From assembly GCA_963782055.1 (NCBI GenBank), contig CAWAIF010000003.1, positions 5,856,001 through 5,920,000 of the forward strand: a stretch of 64,000 nt of DNA, given 5' to 3'. Position numbers and translations under genes: made by a program. Shown here one piece after another: positions 40,368 to 49,011 of the stretch. Under the pieces are notes generated by a model, which did no database searches, was not told the origin of the DNA, and saw nothing but the letters and a program-made list of their open reading frames with translations. Every line of letters starts with the position of its first letter. Positions within the stretch are counted from its first letter, which is position 1. This DNA is from an uncultured delta proteobacterium. Lineage in GTDB: Bacteria > Myxococcota_A > Polyangia > Polyangiales > Polyangiaceae.

Positions 40368-41303
40368 TCACTTGCCGAGCGCGCCGCGGTAGACCCAGCC
40401 TTCGCTCTGGTTCTTGTCGCCGAAGTGGATCGGGTACCAGCCCGCCTCCAGCTTGCCGAGCTGGACGCGCGTGCCCCGCGGCAGCCGCGCGATGATCTTC
40501 CCGGTGTGCGGCGCATCGCGGATGATGGCGACATCCCACGCGACGACGCCCACGCCGTCGGGCAGATCGGCCGCCGCCGCCCCGGCGGGCGTGCCGCCCC
40601 TCGCGTGAGAGGGCGTGGCGGTGACGGCGGCAGGGGTCGACCCGGACGCCGCAGGCGACGTGCTCTCGCCACCCTCCGTCTCGATGTGCACGACGTACAG
40701 CACGGTGTAGCGCGGGTTGTCGTGCGCCACCGACTTGAGGCTCATCGTCTTGAACTCGCCGGCGAGCACCGCCTTGAGCGAGCCGGGGTCCTTCACGCTG
40801 GAGGACTTCCCGCTCTCCACCGAGACGCGGTTGCGCCCGAAGTCCAGGCCCAGGATGACGTTGAGCTTGCCCGGGTTCTGCGCGGCGACCGGCGCCGCGG
40901 TGAGCTTCTGGATGCGCGCCTGGACGATCGCGTCCAGCCCGAGCAGCGTGCCGCAGTCGCGTCGCTTCAGCGTGTCGCCCGCGTCGGTCTTGCACGAGAG
41001 CACGATGGCGCGGCCGACGTGGACCTTCGGCGGGGCCGCGACCGGGGTCACCGACCCGGACGCGGCGGCGGTCACGGCGACGGCCGCCTGCGCGGCGGAC
41101 GCCGACGGCGGCGCTTCCGGCGCGCGCGCGGCGAGCGCCGACAGGGCCTCGGCCGGCGCGCTGGGGCCGAGCCGCACGCCCACGATCTTGGGCCAGGCGA
41201 TGCCGACGGCGAACCCCACCACGGCGATCACCCCGACGCGGGTCCACGACGGCTGGTTGGCCTCCGGCGGGGGGATCTGGACGGCGAGGGGCTTGCTGCG
41301 CAT
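40368..41303 (-). CDS. Membrane-anchored protein with C-terminal bacterial SH3-like domain
   Basis: N-terminal TM (VGVIAVVGFAVGIAW); C-terminal IRDAPHTGKIIARLPRGTRV..GWYPI..EGWVY. Confidence 0.7.
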   Translation of the reverse strand: MRSKPLAVQIPPPEANQPSWTRVGVIAVVGFAVGIAWPKIVGVRLGPSAPAEALSALAARAPEAPPSASAAQAAVAVTAAASGSVTPVAAPPKVHVGRAIVLSCKTDAGDTLKRRDCGTLLGLDAIVQARIQKLTAAPVAAQNPGKLNVILGLDFGRNRVSVESGKSSSVKDPGSLKAVLAGEFKTMSLKSVAHDNPRYTVLYVVHIETEGGESTSPAASGSTPAAVTATPSHARGGTPAGAAAADLPDGVGVVAWDVAIIRDAPHTGKIIARLPRGTRVQLGKLEAGWYPIHFGDKNQSEGWVYRGALGK

Positions 41304-41481
41304 CGCGGGCGATCGTTAGCACGGGCGGCCAAAACGGGCGAAAAACCGGGGAGTCCTGCGGCCGCGGCGCCCCGGCACCATGTGCGCGGGGTGCAAAGGT
41401 ACGCCCGCATGCGAAGACGATGTAAACCGCATCTTCCCGCTTGATCGCGCCGAACGGCCGGTGGTACGCCGTCGCGTCGCC

Positions 41482-41691
41482 ATGAAGATCACCACCGTCT
41501 TCGTCGCCTTCGTCCTCGCGCTCGGCGCGGTCGCGTGCACCCACGTCGCTCCCTACGAGCGTGGGCAGCTCGCCAACCCGACGATGACCGGCGCCGACAT
41601 CGACGGCCTCGCCGCGTCACACGTCCGTGCGGTGCACGAGGGCGCGACAGGCGGCGGGTCGATCGCCGAGAGCGGCTGCGGCTGCAACTGA
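41482..41691 (+). CDS. DUF4266 small lipoprotein
   Basis: Lipobox AVAC, VAPYERGQLA and C-terminal GCGCN, which are characteristic of DUF4266. Confidence 0.85.
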   Translation: MKITTVFVAFVLALGAVACTHVAPYERGQLANPTMTGADIDGLAASHVRAVHEGATGGGSIAESGCGCN

Positions 41692-41789
41692 GCGGCGCGC
41701 GCGCACGCTCGAGCCGCCCGCGAATCGCGTCGCGCGGGATGCGTGCCTGATCGTACCGCCCTCGCGGTACAGAGCTGCAACGCAGCGTC

Positions 41790-43061
41790 ATGCCGAACAT
41801 CCACGTCCGCGGGGCCACCACGAAGCGACATGCGCGCCCGCGCGACCGGCGCGCCGGACGCGTTCGCGCATGGGCGCTGCTCGCCATGCTCCTCGTGGCC
41901 TCCCCCGTCGCCGCCGACGACACCAAGAACGCGGTGAAGGAGGCGGCGCCCGGGCCGAGCGACACCACCACCAAGACCGCGGCGATCGAGATCGCGACCT
42001 ACAAGGACAGCGATCACATCAGCGTCTTCACGCCCTCCATCGCCGCGGGCGTCGAGAACGTCACGCGCGGCGCCTCCGTCCGCGGCAGCTACCTCGTCGA
42101 CGTGGTGTCCGCGGCGTCGGTGGACATCGTGTCCACCGCGTCGCAGCGCTGGCAGGAGGTACGTCACGCCGGCTCGCTCGAGGCCGAGTACAAGCCGCAC
42201 ACCTTCGGCGTCACCGTGGCGGGCGCGCTCTCCAGCGAGCCCGACTACTTCTCGTACAACTTCAGCGCGCTCTCCGCGCTGGACCTCTTCGAGAAGAACA
42301 CCACGCTCACCTTCGGCTTCGGCTTCGGGCACGACACCATCGGCCGACACGGCACGCCCTTCTCCGTCTTCGCGCGTGACCTCTCGCGCGGGTCCTTCAC
42401 CGGCGGCATCACGCAGGTCGTCAACCGCACCACCGTCGTCGGCGCCAGCCTCGACGTGGTGATCGAGAACGGCGACCAGTCCAAGCCGTACCGCTACGTC
42501 CCCATGTTCGCGCCGGACGTGGCGCCGACCGTCCCCAACGGCGCGTCGATCGACTCGGTCAACGCCAACCGCCTCCCGGAGCGGCTGCTCGAGCAGACGC
42601 CCCTCGCGCGCCGCCGCTTCGCCGTGACCGCGCGCTACGCGCACCGCTTCGAGACCTCCACCCTCCGCCTGCAGGAGCGCATCTACTACGACTCCTGGGG
42701 GCTCTTCGCCTCCACCACCAACGCCCGCTGGATCTTCGACTTCGGCCGGCGGCTCGAGCTCTGGCCGGAGGCGCGCTTCCACGGCCAGTCGGCGGTGAGC
42801 TTCTGGAAGCGCGCGTACGTGTCCGGCCCGGCGCCCGGGTGGGACCTGCCCGAGCTGCGCACCGGCGACCGCGAGCTCGGCCCGCTCTGGACCGTCTCCG
42901 GCGGCGGCGGCGTCAAGCTCTTCCTCGGAGGCAAGGCCGACCCGCGCGCGTGGGCGCTCTCCCTGCAGGTCACCGGCCTGTACACGGGCTTCCTCGACAA
43001 TCTGTACCTCACGCAGCGCACCGGGTTCCTCGGCTCGCTCATGCTGGAGGCGGAGCTATGA
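41790..43061 (+). CDS. DUF3570 predicted outer-membrane beta-barrel protein
   Basis: VDVVSAASVDIVSTAS, SSEPDYFS, PYRYV, RIYYDSWG; alternating amphipathic strands; follows the DUF4266 gene. The true start may lie slightly downstream. Confidence 0.8.
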   Translation: MPNIHVRGATTKRHARPRDRRAGRVRAWALLAMLLVASPVAADDTKNAVKEAAPGPSDTTTKTAAIEIATYKDSDHISVFTPSIAAGVENVTRGASVRGSYLVDVVSAASVDIVSTASQRWQEVRHAGSLEAEYKPHTFGVTVAGALSSEPDYFSYNFSALSALDLFEKNTTLTFGFGFGHDTIGRHGTPFSVFARDLSRGSFTGGITQVVNRTTVVGASLDVVIENGDQSKPYRYVPMFAPDVAPTVPNGASIDSVNANRLPERLLEQTPLARRRFAVTARYAHRFETSTLRLQERIYYDSWGLFASTTNARWIFDFGRRLELWPEARFHGQSAVSFWKRAYVSGPAPGWDLPELRTGDRELGPLWTVSGGGGVKLFLGGKADPRAWALSLQVTGLYTGFLDNLYLTQRTGFLGSLMLEAEL

Positions 43062-43564
43062 CGCGTCACGCCCTCCTCGTGGCGGGATTGCTCGGGGCCG
43101 CCGCGCTCTCGGCCTCGTGCGACGACCCCGTCCACGACAGCACCATCGACGCGCTCGGCCCGGAGGACCCCTCCGTCCCGCGGGGCCCGAACCACCGCCC
43201 CGGTCAGCCGTGCGTGGAGTGCCACCAGAGCGAGGGGCCGGCCTCGACGGTGTTCCTCTTCGGCGGGACGGTCTTCGCCACGCAGGGCGCGAGCAATCCC
43301 GCCTCCGGCGTCACGGTGCACCTCACCGACTCCAACGGGGACATGCACGACGTGACCACCAACGACGCGGGCAACTTCTGGGTGACGCCCTCCGACTGGT
43401 CGCCCACCCTCCCGGTCAACGTCTCCATCGAGGACACCAACGCGGGCGTGGGCCAGGCGATGAACTCGCACATCGGCCACGCGGGCTCCTGCGCCTTCTG
43501 CCACACGCCGAACGTGGGTCCCACCTCGCCCGGGCCCGTCTACGTCAACGGGGCGAACCCATGA
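43058..43564 (+). CDS. Diheme c-type cytochrome lipoprotein
   Basis: Lipobox SASC; CVECH and CAFCH flank a beta-rich segment (GVTVHLTDSNG..TTNDAGNF); ATGA overlap with the DUF3570 gene. Confidence 0.8.
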   Translation: MTRHALLVAGLLGAAALSASCDDPVHDSTIDALGPEDPSVPRGPNHRPGQPCVECHQSEGPASTVFLFGGTVFATQGASNPASGVTVHLTDSNGDMHDVTTNDAGNFWVTPSDWSPTLPVNVSIEDTNAGVGQAMNSHIGHAGSCAFCHTPNVGPTSPGPVYVNGANP

Positions 43565-44091
43565 AACACCTCGCCGGCAGCCTCCTCGCGCTGGGCGCGA
43601 TGGCCTCGGTCGTCGCGGCGGCGTGCTCCACGCCCCCCGCCGATTCGCGCATCGGGATCGACGCGCCCTCCCGCGCGCAGTTCGACCCCGTGGGCGGATA
43701 CCTGGAGCACCGGTGCGGCTCCCTCGACTGCCACGGGTCCATCGCCCGCAACATGCGCATCTACGGCTGCAACGGCCTGCGGCTCAGCGGGTCCGACTCC
43801 CCCGGCTGCGCGTCCGACGGCTTCGCCGGCCCGGATACGACGCAGGCGGAGCTCGACGCCACGTACCGCTCGGTGGTCGCCCTCGAGCCGACCGTCATGA
43901 GCGCGGTGGTCGACGGCAACGGCGAGCACCCGGAGTGGCTCACCCTGGTGCGCAAGGCGCGCGGCATGGAAAACCACAAGGGCGGCGCCCTCATCACCCC
44001 GGGCGACCCACAGGACGTGTGCATCACCTCGTGGCTCGCCGGCAACACCGACTCCGGCGCGTGCCTCCAGGCGACCAACAAGTACCCATGA
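43561..44091 (+). CDS. Lipoprotein with atypical CX4CH heme-like motif
   Basis: Lipobox AAAC; RCGSLDCHG; later LVRKARGMENHKGG and CITSWL; ATGA overlap. Confidence 0.7.
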   Translation: MKHLAGSLLALGAMASVVAAACSTPPADSRIGIDAPSRAQFDPVGGYLEHRCGSLDCHGSIARNMRIYGCNGLRLSGSDSPGCASDGFAGPDTTQAELDATYRSVVALEPTVMSAVVDGNGEHPEWLTLVRKARGMENHKGGALITPGDPQDVCITSWLAGNTDSGACLQATNKYP

Positions 44092-45722
44092 TCCGCCGCC
44101 CGCGCCTCCTCCTGCCGTCGCTCCCGGCGCGCGCCCTCGTCGGCGTCGCGCTGGCGGCGGCGCTCGTGCTCACGGCGACGAGCGCCCGCGCCGAGAACAG
44201 GCGCGTGGAGTCGGCGGCGCGCCACGCGCTCCACAAGGCCGCCGACGAGTTCCTCGCGCTCAAGTACGACAAGGCCATCGCGCGACTGAGCCACGCGATC
44301 GCCGCGTGCGGCAAGAGTCGCTGCACCGAGAAGACCCACGCCGAGCTCCTGCGCGACCGCGGCACGATGCTCCTCGCCAAGGGCAGCAAGCAGCGCGCGA
44401 GCGCCGACTTCATCGCCGCGCTGAAGATCGCGCCCACGCTCGAGCTCAACCCGGACTACGCGACCCGCGCGTCCCGTGCCGCGTGGTCGGAGGCGCGGCA
44501 GTCGGTCATCGGCCTCACGCAGCCCACCGGCGACTTCACGCACACGCCGGCGCCGGAGCAGCAGGTGCACACCCCCCTGCCCGTCTACGTGGAGGACCTG
44601 GGCGAGAACCTGGCGCGCGTCATCGTGCGTTACCGCGGCGAGGGCATGGGCGAGTTCCGCACCGCGAAGCTGAAGCCCCTCGGCAAGGGCTGGGGCGGGG
44701 AGATCCCGTGCGCGGCCGTCGAGACGGGCATGATGCGCTACTACATCCTCGGCTACGACAGGCGCGGCGAGCCCGTCGCCAACACGGGCAACGTGCACCA
44801 CCCGTTCATGGTGCCCATCCGCGAGAACATCAGCTCCCCGTCCCCTCACCTGCCGCACCGCCCCGCGCCGGAGCAGTGCGAGGACTGCAACGAGCACCCC
44901 GAGTCGTGCGGGCGCAAGGAGGAGTCGCGCGGGGGCATCGGCGCGGTGTGCGACGTGGACGCGCAGTGCGAGAGCGGCGCGTGCCGCGACGACCGCTGCG
45001 TGGCAAGCGCCCCCGCGCAGTCGGGCGGCACGACCTACGCGCGCTGGTGGTTCGGCGTGGCCACGTCGATGGACCTCGTGGGGGCGGGCGCCTCCGGCGA
45101 CGTGTGCAAGCTCGACGCGAACGCCGCGCCGGTCAACGGCGACGGCTACTACTGCACCAACCCCGACGGCACCGACTTCCCCACCCGCGACTCCCCCGAT
45201 CAGAACGCCACGCTCGGCGCCGGTGACGCCGGGCAGGCCGGCGGCGGCCTCTTCGGCGGCAACGTGCGCGTGATGGCCAGCTTCGACTACGCCCTCAACG
45301 CGAACTTCCTCGTGGGCGCGCGCCTCGGCTGGGCGGTCACCTCCTACCCGGGACAGGCCGCGTCGAAGGATGGTCGCGAGCTGCCGGTCCCCATCCACGT
45401 GGAGGCACGCGCGACGTTCGTCTTCGGCGAGGCCGCCCTGGCCGACCTCGGCTTCGCGCCGGTGATCTTCGGGGCCGCGGGCGTCTCCAACTTCGACGCC
45501 GGGCAGACGGTGATGGTCACGCAGAGCGGCATCCCCGGCCAGCAGCCGATCGTTGCGTGGCGCGTGGGCGGGCCCGGGTTCATCGCGGTGGGCGGCGGCT
45601 TCCGCTACGCCCTGTCGCAGCGCATCGCCTTCAGCGCCGCGGCGAAGTTCACCGCCGCGCTCGGTCCGACGGGGTTCCTCCCGACGATCGGACCGGAGGT
45701 CGCGCTGCAGTACGGGTTCTAG
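44088..45722 (+). CDS. Exported TPR-like + Ig-like + Cys-rich protein with C-terminal beta-barrel-like region
   Basis: Signal peptide (ARA-E); helical N-terminus; Cys cluster CDVDAQCESGACRDDRC; ends in the outer-membrane-type signal EVALQYGF; ATGA overlap. Confidence 0.7.
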   Translation: MIRRPRLLLPSLPARALVGVALAAALVLTATSARAENRRVESAARHALHKAADEFLALKYDKAIARLSHAIAACGKSRCTEKTHAELLRDRGTMLLAKGSKQRASADFIAALKIAPTLELNPDYATRASRAAWSEARQSVIGLTQPTGDFTHTPAPEQQVHTPLPVYVEDLGENLARVIVRYRGEGMGEFRTAKLKPLGKGWGGEIPCAAVETGMMRYYILGYDRRGEPVANTGNVHHPFMVPIRENISSPSPHLPHRPAPEQCEDCNEHPESCGRKEESRGGIGAVCDVDAQCESGACRDDRCVASAPAQSGGTTYARWWFGVATSMDLVGAGASGDVCKLDANAAPVNGDGYYCTNPDGTDFPTRDSPDQNATLGAGDAGQAGGGLFGGNVRVMASFDYALNANFLVGARLGWAVTSYPGQAASKDGRELPVPIHVEARATFVFGEAALADLGFAPVIFGAAGVSNFDAGQTVMVTQSGIPGQQPIVAWRVGGPGFIAVGGGFRYALSQRIAFSAAAKFTAALGPTGFLPTIGPEVALQYGF

Positions 45723-45738
45723 ATGAGCGGTCGCGATT

Positions 45739-45757
45739 CGCGAACGCGAACGCGAAC
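45739..45757. repeat. (CGCGAA)3 short tandem repeat between convergent operons
   Basis: cgcgaa cgcgaa cgcgaa c. Confidence 0.7.
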
Positions 45758-45820
45758 CAAGGGGGAAGCCGCCGAATTCACTTCGGCGTAGCCAAATCGT
45801 GCACGCTGATTGAGGGCTCG

Positions 45821-46339
45821 CTACGGCTTCATCGTGAAGCCGATGACCAGGATGCCGCCCTGGTAGCTCTGCCCCGCGACGAAGAAGGTCTCGTTCGCCG
45901 TGGCGGTGACCTCCAGCAGCTTCAGGTAGGCGCTGCCGCCCGGCTGGTTGATCGCCGCGGCGACGCGGTAGCGGTGATCCGCCGTGACGTCCTCGAGGGT
46001 GATCTGCAGCGTGCGCTTGTTGACCATCCCGTAGGTGGCGGGCTTGCCCTTGTCCAGGCCGATGGCCTTGCGGTCGAGCAGCTTGTAGGTGTTGTACGCG
46101 GAGAAGGGCGGCTTCTTGAGCTGCGGCAGGTTGCCGATCTGCGGGTCGATGGAGCCGGCGCCCGCCTGCTGCGTGGCGTGCAGGACCATCACCTCCACCG
46201 TGGCGTGCGACGGCGCGGGAGCATGCGCCGCAGGCGGCTGCGCGTACGCGCCGGGGACAGCCGCGAGCACGAGGGCCGCCGCGGTCACCACGGAGGCCGC
46301 CAGGAGGCGGGGAGTGCGTCGGGAGAAGAGGCTAGCCAT
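45821..46339 (-). CDS. Exported hypothetical protein co-transcribed with the ECF sigma/anti-sigma pair
   Basis: Signal peptide (AYA-Q), GC-biased codons, beta-rich mature region. Confidence 0.7.
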   Translation of the reverse strand: MASLFSRRTPRLLAASVVTAAALVLAAVPGAYAQPPAAHAPAPSHATVEVMVLHATQQAGAGSIDPQIGNLPQLKKPPFSAYNTYKLLDRKAIGLDKGKPATYGMVNKRTLQITLEDVTADHRYRVAAAINQPGGSAYLKLLEVTATANETFFVAGQSYQGGILVIGFTMKP

Positions 46340-46345
46340 GGCGCT

Positions 46346-46936
46346 TCACTGGGCTCCGTTCGAGTCGTCGATCCACACGACCACGCTCTGCGCGGGGGTA
46401 TCGGCTGCGGGGGCGTTGTCCACGTAGAAGACCGACACCGCGTGCGAGCCGGTGTCGACCGAATCGACCTCTACGCTGCGAGACCGTAGCTGCGCAAGGG
46501 CCCCGGAGGGATCCGGCGTGGGGACGGGAGCGGTGGTCAGGGGGGCGGTGGCGACCGGGACGGCCGGGCCCTGGTTGGTCGCTTGCTGCGGGGTCTCCGC
46601 GCCCTGGCGGACGTAGAGGAACACCGCGGCGGCGATGGCAGCCACCGACGCCGCGACGAACGCCATCCGCACGCGGCCATGGCGCTTGAGGCGCGCCCGG
46701 TCCAGCTCGTTGGGGACCAGACGCCCCATGATCTCGTCGGTGATCTCCAGCGACGCCGCGCTCCCCGTGGGGGCGGCGGCGCGGACGCCCTCGCCCAGCG
46801 CGCGGATGGAGGCGAGCAGCTCCCGGGCCTCGACGCTGGCGGTGACCATGCCCTCGACGCGGGCGGCCTCGTCCGCTTCCAGCTCGCCGTCGGCGTAGGC
46901 CATCACGTCCAGCATCTCCTTCTCCGCGAGGGTCAC
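46346..46936 (-). CDS. Membrane anti-sigma factor
   Basis: MAYADGELEADEAARVE resembles an anti-sigma N-terminus (no HxxxCxxC); single TM; GTGA overlap with the sigma gene. Confidence 0.75.
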   Translation of the reverse strand: MTLAEKEMLDVMAYADGELEADEAARVEGMVTASVEARELLASIRALGEGVRAAAPTGSAASLEITDEIMGRLVPNELDRARLKRHGRVRMAFVAASVAAIAAAVFLYVRQGAETPQQATNQGPAVPVATAPLTTAPVPTPDPSGALAQLRSRSVEVDSVDTGSHAVSVFYVDNAPAADTPAQSVVVWIDDSNGAQ

Positions 46937-47796
46937 GACGACTCCTCCCCCTCCCCGCGACCGGACTTCTCGGCGGCGGCCTCACGCAGCTCGGGGCCCC
47001 GGACCTGCTCCTGATAGCAGTCCACCAGCGCCCTCTGCAGCTTCTGCCTTGCGTGAAACAACCGGCTCATGATCGTGCCCTTCGAGACGCCCATCGCCTG
47101 CGCCATCTCTTCGTAGCTCAGCCCCTCCACCTCGCGCATCACGATGACGCCGCGGTGGTAGTCCGGCAGGGCGTCGAGCGCCTGCTGTAGCCGCGCGGCA
47201 ATCTCGCCGCGACGCACCACGTCGGAGGGGTCTGAGCCGTCGATGCGGCTGACGAACGGGAAGTCGATCTCGCGTGTCTCCTCTTGGTCGTGCCGGCTGT
47301 CGTCCAGTTGGGCGACCTGCCGGCCAGGTTTTCGGATGAGGTCGATGCTCAAGTTGGTGATGATGCGATAAAGCCAGGTGAAGAAGCTCGACTGTCCCTG
47401 GAAGTTCCCCAGGTTCTTGTAAACTCGCAGGAATGCGTCCTGAACCAGCTCTCGGGCGTCGTTCTCGTCACGGACGAGCGAGAGGGCGATGGAGAAGGCC
47501 CGGCGCTGGTGACGCTCGACAAGACTGCGAAATGCGACGGTATCCCCTGCCTGCGCCCTCGCGATGAGGGCCCGGTCCTCCTCGGCCTCTTTGGCCCGTG
47601 TTTCCTTGCTGTTGGACGCCCCCGCGGCAGCCCTATTCACCCGCCCCAGCGAAACGACCTTCGCACGACGCTCGGCATCGGCGGGCCGGGGCGCGGGCTC
47701 CGGCCCCGCGTTTTCCCCGGGGTCGGAGGCCTCTCGCGGCCGGGCCGGGGCGGGCGTCGCGCCCCGCTTCTTCGGATCCTCGGCTCGGGAGCTCAT
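46933..47796 (-). CDS. ECF RNA polymerase sigma factor (RpoE-like)
   Basis: Region 2 DARELVQDAFLRVY..FFTWLYRIITN; region 4 LPDYHRGVIVMREVEGLSYEEMA..GTIMSRLFHARQKL. Start position uncertain. Confidence 0.9.
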   Translation of the reverse strand: MSSRAEDPKKRGATPAPARPREASDPGENAGPEPAPRPADAERRAKVVSLGRVNRAAAGASNSKETRAKEAEEDRALIARAQAGDTVAFRSLVERHQRRAFSIALSLVRDENDARELVQDAFLRVYKNLGNFQGQSSFFTWLYRIITNLSIDLIRKPGRQVAQLDDSRHDQEETREIDFPFVSRIDGSDPSDVVRRGEIAARLQQALDALPDYHRGVIVMREVEGLSYEEMAQAMGVSKGTIMSRLFHARQKLQRALVDCYQEQVRGPELREAAAEKSGRGEGEESS

Positions 47797-47856
47797 CGCG
47801 CGATCACCGTAGCCGATGCCGCCACGGATGCCGAGCGCCTCCGGCGCGGCGGCGGG

Positions 47857-49011
47857 TCAGCGCCTGGGCTGGAGAACCCCGAGCGTGACCGGCACGTCCT
47901 TCTCCTTGCCCACGCGGTCCACCTTGAGGGTGACCGTCTTGCCGACCCCGGTGGTGCTGGCCATCCACTGCAGCTCCTGCCCGCGGCCGACGGGCTTGCC
48001 GTCGAAGGCGACGATGACGTCTCCAGGCGAAAGGCCGGCCTTGTCGGCCGGGCCGCCGGGGACCACGTACTCGACCACCGCGCCCTTGTCCCCGGTGACC
48101 TTCAGGTCGGTCTTGTCGTCGACGGAGAGCTCGCGCACGTCCCGGATGCTCACGCCGATGGCGCTGCGCACGACGCGCCCATCCCGCAGGAGCATGGGCA
48201 GCAGCTGCTTGACCATGTTGATCGGGATGGCGAAGCCGATGCCCTGCGCGCCACCGCCGCGGATGGCCGAGTTGATGCCGACGACCTGGCCCTGCAGGTC
48301 CAGCAGCGGCCCGCCGGAGTTGCCGGGGTTGATGCTCGCGTCGGTCTGCAGGAAGTCGTAGTAGCCGGCCGGGTCGAGTGGCACGTCGTCCTTGGTGCGC
48401 CCCTTGGCGCTCACAATCCCCGCCGACACCGTGTGCTCCAGGCCGAAGGGGTTGCCGATGGCGACGACCCAGTCGCCCACCTGGATGGCATCGGAGTCTC
48501 CGAGGGGGATGGGCTTGAGGGCGAGGCCTGTGGGATCGATGTGGATGACGGCGATGTCAGTGGGCCAATCGCGCCCGATGATCTTGGCGGGGAGCACCTT
48601 GTCGTCGGCGAGCTTCACGCTGATGCTCTGCGCCTCCTCGCTGCCGCCCTCTTCACTCACCACGTGGTTGTTGGTGAGGATGGTGCCGTCCTTGTCGATG
48701 ACGAAGCCGGTACCGAGGCCCTTGGCCTCCCGCCGCGCGCGGTGGCCGCCCCAGCCCTCCACCACTTCCTCCCCGACGGTGGTGATGGTCACCACGCTCG
48801 CGTTCACCTGCTTGACGATGGGTGCGAAGGAGACGGGCTGGAGCTTCACCAGCGGCTTGCCCGGATCGACGGGGGCGGGCGGCGGCGCGGTGGCCGTCGT
48901 CGCAGAGGCGCTGGCCGCGGCCGCGCCGCCGTCGTCCTTCTTTCCGCAGGCCGTGAGGGCCACGAGGAAGCTCAACAGGAACGGCGCGGCGGGTCGCAGC
49001 ATGGTGGTCAC
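47857..49011 (-). CDS. htrA: HtrA/DegP-family serine protease lipoprotein with one PDZ domain
   Basis: Lipobox LTAC; triad TNNHVV, DIAV, QTDASINPGNSGGPL; PDZ segment GGPADKAGL. Confidence 0.92.
   Translation of the reverse strand: MTTMLRPAAPFLLSFLVALTACGKKDDGGAAAASASATTATAPPPAPVDPGKPLVKLQPVSFAPIVKQVNASVVTITTVGEEVVEGWGGHRARREAKGLGTGFVIDKDGTILTNNHVVSEEGGSEEAQSISVKLADDKVLPAKIIGRDWPTDIAVIHIDPTGLALKPIPLGDSDAIQVGDWVVAIGNPFGLEHTVSAGIVSAKGRTKDDVPLDPAGYYDFLQTDASINPGNSGGPLLDLQGQVVGINSAIRGGGAQGIGFAIPINMVKQLLPMLLRDGRVVRSAIGVSIRDVRELSVDDKTDLKVTGDKGAVVEYVVPGGPADKAGLSPGDVIVAFDGKPVGRGQELQWMASTTGVGKTVTLKVDRVGKEKDVPVTLGVLQPRR

Follow-up and report, generated by a model that had tools for sequence, protein, structure and literature searches.

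A conserved DUF4266-DUF3570 gene module with two likely cytochrome lipoproteins in one myxobacterial family: a candidate outer-membrane redox relay

Porin-cytochrome conduits, typified by MtrAB/MtrC (PDB 6r2q) and by Pcc from Geobacter, have an outer-membrane barrel that is encoded together with c-type cytochrome lipoproteins. A second group of described systems is built around DUF3570, and comprises gene clusters of the flavin transferase ApbE, DUF3570, a thioredoxin-like protein and DUF4266, among the "DsbD systems" of Meheust 2021 (PMC8238504), where ApbE was reported to flavinylate two serines of the Chlorobium DUF3570 protein. The DUF4266-DUF3570 core is thus already in print, with a further passing mention in bioRxiv 2023.06.07.544157, and the function of the flavinylated DUF3570 proteins has been open since 2021. 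The main text of PMC8238504 uses neither "barrel" nor "porin", its passages on DUF3570 name no cytochrome partner, and the relevant passages of PMC11334425 contain no barrel discussion. Outside subscription papers, we found no account of DUF3570 with the cytochromes considered here, or of the two families to which these belong; the gene-by-gene supplement of PMC8238504 may hold such loci unremarked. Here we analyze five genes, A to E, in a stretch of 64,000 nucleotides (the window) from the 7.58 Mb genome (GC 72%) of an uncultured delta proteobacterium (GCA_963782055.1, contig CAWAIF010000003.1, positions 5,856,001 to 5,920,000). The titled relatives of the protein encoded by gene B come from Polyangiaceae and Labilithrix metagenome-assembled genomes.

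Genes A to D form a conserved module within one myxobacterial family. We propose, with about an even chance of being right, that their products make up an outer-membrane redox relay, in which a barrel flavinylated in trans would cooperate with three haems of the c type and with a lipoprotein that has a CxC motif. An earlier note on this DNA, made from the letters alone, had described a run of five co-oriented genes, and we indeed find five open reading frames (ORFs) on the plus strand, with ATGA overlaps at 43058-43061, 43561-43564 and 44088-44091 and with every motif that it had named (GCGCN, CVECH, CAFCH, CX4CH and a terminal YGF) in its place (Table 1). Its two domain calls held up in a check with hidden Markov models, in which A matched DUF4266 (PF14086, E 4.4e-11) and B matched DUF3570 (PF12094, E 2.2e-27), both above the Pfam cut-off. 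For the other proteins, Pfam gave matches to C that were all sub-threshold (CarboxypepD_reg, E 8e-5; Cytochrome_C7), weak tetratricopeptide repeat (TPR) matches to E and no match to D, and NCBIfam assigned no family to any of the five. A Pfam scan of the window locus also agreed with the note in finding no adjacent ApbE or thioredoxin gene. What the note had overlooked is a pair of ApbE-type motifs inside B.

The order A-B-C-D is present three times in the genome, namely in the window, at C3:591241-594836 and at C2:386980-389505, while a fourth DUF3570 gene is accompanied by A and a distant D-like gene and lacks C. We ran a profile of C against 80 other genomes of the same family, and its scores split into 91 strong matches (E <= 1e-35) in 40 genomes versus 114 weaker ones. 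Two of the strong matches (L067 and L071) were taken up separately, leaving 89 loci from 38 relatives, whose neighbors were counted with our own profiles on six-frame ORFs. A DUF3570 gene lies directly upstream of C in 83 of these 89 loci, D adjoins C in 87, and DUF4266 is found within 3.2 kb in 51; within the fetched stretch, a thioredoxin-like gene occurs in 23 loci and apbE in none (0/89). The order B-C-D was likewise seen in L067 and L071, and in five metagenome-derived loci (L007-L011). Of the six loci without B directly upstream, one is inverted, one lies at a contig edge, one (L125) is a true orphan, and in three B is missing or another gene intervenes. A set of 20 control loci was hand-picked down the list of 114 weaker matches, leaving out G193:C161, whose weak match is a contig-cut copy with DUF3570 upstream; A, B or D was found near the C-like gene in none of the 20. 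Overall, the module occurs in 40 of the 80 sampled family genomes, often in two to four copies, and in a sample of 200 genomes from the phylum strong matches to C were restricted to 4 of 14 family members (0 of 186 others), with one more distant B-C-D locus (L033) belonging to another family. In addition, 39 of 60 loci carry a further upstream CXnCH lipoprotein that is distantly D-like (hhalign 89%) and missing from the window. Given the two further copies in the genome and the order B-C-D in most relatives, the arrangement A-B-C-D is above chance, and the pairing of cytochrome-motif genes with DUF3570 pointed out in the earlier note is kept in relatives.

The AlphaFold2 model of B (predicted local distance difference test, pLDDT, 91; predicted template modeling score, pTM, 0.86) has 16 long strands by our count, and its structural matches are outer-membrane barrels (PelB, Z 19.5; PgaA, 19.0; BcsC, 18.5; CymA, 18.3; OmpG, 17.0), in line with the barrel predicted in the earlier note. 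Pfam and NCBIfam gave no match to the MtrB or MtrA family. The two ApbE-type motifs, DVVSAAS and DIVSTAS, align with the flavinylation positions of the Chlorobium protein and are situated in the loop that joins predicted strands 3 and 4. As long loops alternate with short turns in the model, this loop is probably on the extracellular side, and the low pLDDT at its tip suggests that it is mobile. Among 59 barrels of the clade, the two Asp, the two Ala and the two acceptor Ser residues are 100% conserved, compared with a median column identity of 53%, and the tandem motif is present in all 83 barrels encoded directly upstream of C. Where the published consensus has Gly, B carries Ala or Thr; the same variants were seen in barrels encoded beside apbE (L034, L038 and L054), and, according to a review (PMC12052999), a model substrate with Gly replaced by Ala was still about 50% flavinylated. 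In our trees (a quick tree of 69 rows and a FastTree of 73 rows, used for clade description only), B forms a clade separate from canonical DUF3570. We consider it likely that the two acceptor serines in the loop of B are flavinylated by an ApbE whose gene stands alone at another place in the genome.

Two apbE genes are indeed found elsewhere in the genome, one of which (G000:C3:6621209-6622360) encodes a stand-alone lipoprotein with no evident substrate adjoining, as well as one DsbD-type gene. Across the 80 family genomes, which are related and partly incomplete, ApbE was found in 40/40 genomes with the module and 12/12 with other DUF3570 types (52/52 together), compared with 10/28 in which no DUF3570 was found. 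For a wider view, DUF3570 was found in 48 of 151 genomes of the phylum, and 60 loci outside the genome under study were fetched, best-scoring first. Of these, 11 are of the canonical DsbD-TlpA-DUF4266-DUF3570-ApbE type (ApbE in 11, a thioredoxin-like gene in 10 and DUF4266 in 9) and contain neither C nor D. D-like genes occur in 30 of the 60, together with apbE in 12 and with a thioredoxin-like gene in 8. The third partner in such D-like loci varies: C takes this place in the module, and other loci have hydrazine-synthase-like propeller cytochromes or CxxCH proteins of the choice-of-anchor-V type. This pattern suggests that D has long been associated with flavinylated barrels, that C is a partner specific to the module in this family, and that the predicted haems add to the known DUF3570 partners. 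As a separate observation, hydrazine-synthase-alpha-like and beta/gamma-like propeller cytochromes, part of which carry D-like domains, adjoin DUF3570 (often with apbE too) in other Myxococcota (L031, L049, L055, L062 and L070), and genes for hydrazine-synthase-like propeller cytochromes are also present in the genome itself, at G000:C2:477946-484480, without DUF3570.

C and D are likely c-type cytochrome lipoproteins that would carry three haems between them: both are exported and have a conserved CXnCH motif and a candidate distal ligand, and the host has a maturation system. Both CxxCH motifs are invariant in 44 relatives of C, and so are H46 and M135; in a broader set of 145 representatives below 300 aa, the two CxxCH motifs are kept in 143, the His in 144 and the Met in 142. 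H46 and M135 would provide exactly two spare ligands for two haems, and are candidate distal ligands. The C domain is also found repeated in tandem (2-5 units, with 3 and 5 among them; P0169, P0185 and P0311) and fused to a monohaem cytochrome-like domain in three proteins, which fits a unit that would carry electrons beside a monohaem partner; by its motifs, the tandem form is an undescribed multihaem-motif repeat family. In D, C52, C57, H58, H139, C154 and C168 are invariant among 120 relatives, and H139 is a candidate distal haem ligand. Its CX4CH spacing is counted among haem-binding motifs (PMC11492766). The model of D is helical (pLDDT 91), and Atlas gives it distant leads to PSCyt1/CTI clusters (scores 0.93 and 0.90, with PSCyt1 on 16% of the members at 0.93); taken for C and D together, the Atlas leads also include Paired_CXXCH clusters. 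The genome encodes CcmE and three cytochrome c assembly proteins of the CcmF/C type, that is, Ccm-type maturation, with no match to ResB, and we counted 132 CxxCH proteins among 6396 genes by rough gene calling of our own.

In A, the residues R27, M35, H47 and E53 and the C-terminal CGCN, with C66 and C68, are invariant in an alignment of 50 sequences. In five loci (L037, L046, L047, L058 and L063), DUF4266 makes up the last 50 residues of ORFs of 340-475 aa that directly precede DUF3570. DUF4266 may serve as a docking tail for larger proteins there; these ORFs may be fusions or gene-call artefacts.

Taken together, we propose the following course of events for the relay. Flavin mononucleotide (FMN) would be attached to B in the periplasm, prior to insertion of the barrel, after which the FMN-bearing loop would reach into the pore or cap it, and C and D would dock on the barrel and on one another. 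Electrons would pass from periplasmic DsbD/TlpA thiols to the CxC of DUF4266, on to the two FMNs, and from there through the haems of D and C (bis-His and His/Met) to a surface acceptor, most likely a metal ion or chelate. Usual redox potentials favor this order of thiol, FMN, haem and surface acceptor, and we favor the outward direction, which takes up about half of the probability that we give to the relay; if C and D instead face the periplasm, the flow would run inward. MtrB has 26 strands and is far wider than a barrel of 16. A pore of 16 strands is too narrow for a haem wire like that of MtrA, so that the carriers crossing the membrane would be the two FMNs, perhaps with the CGCN tail. 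More tentatively, and with clearly less confidence than we place in the relay itself, DUF3570 barrels may represent a second kind of outer-membrane conduit, crossed via two FMNs covalently attached to a pore loop instead of a haem wire, with C and D, as a new dihaem family and a new CX4CH monohaem family, serving in this myxobacterial family as interchangeable terminals on the barrel.

Several of our results weigh against the proposed relay. Structurally, B comes closest to TPR-linked pores for the export of polysaccharides (PelB, PgaA and BcsC), tied with CymA, while MtrB (6r2q) comes only at rank 36, with a root-mean-square deviation (rmsd) of 8.2. Both motifs of B break the consensus D-x-x-[S/T]-G-A-[S/T] at Gly, and in the second motif just 58% of the 59 barrels have S/T at position 4. 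The fold of D has no convincing cytochrome match, the best being FoxE (Z 3.8, rmsd 3.1, 78 residues aligned), though D may still have a cytochrome fold. Profile searches of solved structures found no relative of B or D, and for C only short partial ones, among them one c555. DUF4266 is absent from 38 of the 89 loci, so that a thiol step in cis is not obligatory. Among the conserved neighbors in 60 family loci there is no inner-membrane electron source. Finally, the co-occurrence of ApbE and DUF3570 is an association and not a test, as the genomes are kin and do not make 80 independent trials, and one genome with the module (G164) has only a weaker ApbE match.

Four other explanations were weighed against the relay. 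The foremost, which we regard as possible and yet rather unlikely, is a redox-coupled metal uptake pore, in which Cu or Fe would enter via the barrel, be reduced by FMN and haem, and be captured by one Met, one His and two Cys residues of DUF4266, with the electrons serving the cargo and staying in the cell. M35, H47, C66 and C68 of DUF4266 are the invariant residues that this would use, and such a Met/His/Cys/Cys set is typical of soft-metal sites. Some modules have YtkA-like genes as neighbors (3 of 60 family loci; L040), an open barrel of 16 strands suits the passage of a solute, and a VIT1 iron transporter occurs in 25 ApbE-DUF3570 clusters according to PMC8238504. However, among the 23 neighbor families that are found in at least 3 of the 60 loci, part of which were scanned against Pfam, we saw neither a TonB-dependent receptor nor a transporter or regulator for metals, the DUF4266 that would catch the metal is lacking in the 38 loci mentioned above, and the three to four paralogous modules, which differ in their partner cytochromes, equally fit varied redox partners. 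Considerably less probable is a role in export, with a pore like PelB, PgaA or BcsC (TPR with 16 strands and a lipoprotein ring) whose flavin and haems would modify or sense an exported polymer or protein. This reading draws on the top structural matches, on the length of the barrels (38 of 61 in this clade have at least 550 aa, and 15 match the N-terminal TPR part of E), and on the C-terminal position of DUF4266 in larger proteins of other families. The scores are, however, tied with CymA and near those of OmpG, and reflect strand number (identity 7-10%); neither a synthase nor a glycosyltransferase is among the conserved neighbors in the 60 family loci, and canonical DUF3570 clusters contain only redox genes and no TPR.

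The other two explanations concern the cofactors. The earlier note had supposed that haems stand in for the flavin and thiol partners, which would leave a flavin-free barrel that houses or bridges cytochromes as in porin-cytochrome conduits. The absence of apbE from all 89 loci, the loss of the consensus Gly and the position of the cytochrome genes, which is that of apbE in the canonical clade, would all fit this idea. Yet the acceptor serines are invariant, the motif is present in 83/83 barrels and ApbE in trans in 52/52 genomes; a thioredoxin-like gene lies in 23 of the 89 loci, D-like genes and apbE stand together in 12 of 30, and a 16-strand barrel is much narrower than MtrB. We therefore reject a loss of flavinylation, and consider replacement by haems quite improbable. 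Least probable of all, in our judgement, is that C and D are not cytochromes, and that their Cys/His motifs bind Zn or make disulfides in lipoproteins that serve the barrel in a structural role or in its assembly. Neither protein reaches the cut-off of a Pfam or NCBIfam cytochrome family, the model of D lacks a clear cytochrome match, and both are Cys-rich exported lipoproteins; but C carries two canonical CxxCH motifs and, to go with them, exactly two spare ligands that are invariant, both proteins are exported in a host with Ccm genes, and Atlas leads to PSCyt1/CTI and Paired_CXXCH clusters. The earlier reading of the locus as a candidate redox conduit stands in part: the conserved cytochrome-motif neighbors, the predicted barrel and the spare His and Met residues that haem ligation in C and D would need speak for it, while the replacement of flavin and thiol partners and a fixed fifth gene do not hold.

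That fifth gene, E, had been counted as a regular component. With its middle domain and C-terminal part, it was found behind the module in only 5 of 88 loci, which form one subclade with the window in the tree (two of the five are absent from the tree), and its only full-length paralog, at G000:C3:2108205, has no module beside it. We therefore rejected E as a core part. Its N-terminal TPR part resembles the extension of many long DUF3570 barrels, so that E may supply a similar part in an accessory role, and its C-terminal second barrel is putative, from sequence and the terminal Phe. By its distribution, E is a late add-on, a predicted accessory TPR-barrel protein of one subclade only.

Table 1. 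Positions of the genes and motifs in the window.
Feature	Position	Strand	Description
Gene A	41482-41691	+	69 aa, lipobox, C-terminus GCGCN; DUF4266 lipoprotein
Gene B	41790-43061	+	423 aa (alternative later start at 41886 possible); DUF3570, predicted 16-strand outer-membrane beta-barrel
Tandem ApbE-type motifs in B	42099-42143	+	DVVSAAS-V-DIVSTAS, residues 104-118; candidate FMN acceptors S110 and S118
Gene C	43058-43564	+	168 aa lipoprotein, CVECH and CAFCH
CxxCH motifs of C	43211-43225 and 43490-43504	+	Flank a carboxypeptidase-regulatory-like sandwich
Gene D	43561-44091	+	176 aa helical lipoprotein; CX4CH is CGSLDCH at 43714-43734
Gene E	44088-45722	+	544 aa, ends YGF; TPR, Cys-rich middle and C-terminal putative barrel

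The GC content at third codon positions is 0.91-0.97 across all five genes. Neither a sigma-70-type promoter nor a plus-strand terminator was found in 41200-46000. The upstream flank encodes an SH3 protein unrelated to the module. On the other side, at 45821-49011 on the minus strand, genes for a DegP-like protease, an ECF sigma factor, an anti-sigma-like protein and a small exported protein are convergent on the module and likewise unrelated to it.

The other DUF3570 and DUF4266 genes of the genome have neighborhoods of their own. The C2 copy is followed in the same orientation by a gene for an EF-hand NOX5-like ferric reductase (L152:3802-6479 = G000:C2:384301-386978, minus strand), which has a frameshift between its EF-hand and membrane parts, and also by one for a multihaem protein with a terminal ApbE-type motif. 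These genes are a possible local electron source that is not conserved in relatives; a NOX-like ferric reductase as a general source was rejected, as it is not among the conserved neighbors. Behind the copy at C3:591241-594836 lies a cluster (L153:8944-13526 = G000:C3:594943-599528) that encodes a Tat-type signal protein together with several lipoproteins bearing cytochrome-like motifs; the three proteins scanned from it had no Pfam match. The fourth DUF3570 type (L154; G000:C3:3602639-3605362, minus strand) follows genes for a D-like lipoprotein with wider Cys spacing, an SH3 and small barrel protein, and DUF4266; it has a canonical SGAS motif, and its gene order recurs in L023, L025-L027, L030, L043, L045 and L065. 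At G000:C3:4859363-4860200 (minus strand) there is a second DUF4266 copy close to that of the window, with a frameshift (real or an assembly error) and no DUF3570 after it, and preceded by a CNSCH lipoprotein that resembles the gene upstream of DUF4266 in L007. In relatives, one TPR-DUF3570 module (L172) has a co-oriented DsbD-type gene some 4 kb upstream of it, and proteins of DUF2271, another ApbE substrate family, adjoin two modules of this clade (L008:5349-5978 and L079:7307-8197).

The variant described here ties DUF3570 to two uncharacterized cytochrome-motif families in a four-gene unit whose flavin transferase is encoded elsewhere. If electrons do cross the outer membrane by this route, it would be a conduit on a principle different from MtrAB, a chain of thiol, flavin and haem in aerobic soil myxobacteria that are not known for extracellular electron transfer, and an unrecognized surface redox capacity in organisms abundant in soil. 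The module is small enough to be expressed whole, and the proposal predicts FMN on S110 and S118, three haems and one complex.

Among described systems, the module is closest to the ApbE/DUF3570/thioredoxin-like/DUF4266 clusters (PMC8238504), with which it shares a DUF4266 with a C-terminal CxC directly before DUF3570; at the aligned positions of the latter it has two tandem motifs that resemble the flavinylation type. It differs from them, as described there, in lacking apbE and dsbD in the locus, in the two cytochrome-motif lipoproteins after the barrel, in the Ala or Thr in place of Gly and in the separate clade of B. With MtrAB/MtrC and Pcc it has in common a barrel encoded with c-type cytochrome lipoproteins and a proposed passage of electrons; unlike MtrAB, its barrel has 16 predicted strands and candidate flavin sites, and there are three haem motifs (two and one) instead of a decahaem wire. 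D may resemble the monohaem domains PSCyt1 and CTI (PF07635, PF06934) in being helical, with an early CXnCH and a distal His or Met towards the end, and departs from them in having no HMM match, a CX4CH spacing, an extra invariant Cys pair and the form of a stand-alone lipoprotein tied to DUF3570. B, finally, is similar to PelB, PgaA and BcsC in barrel size and in the N-terminal TPR part of many relatives, whereas its identity to them is 7-10%, no synthase adjoins it, and they have nothing that corresponds to its flavin motifs and haem partners. We therefore regard the module as a variant of the DUF3570 flavinylation system with apbE and thioredoxin/DsbD not in cis, which by barrel size and number of haems is not of the MtrAB type.

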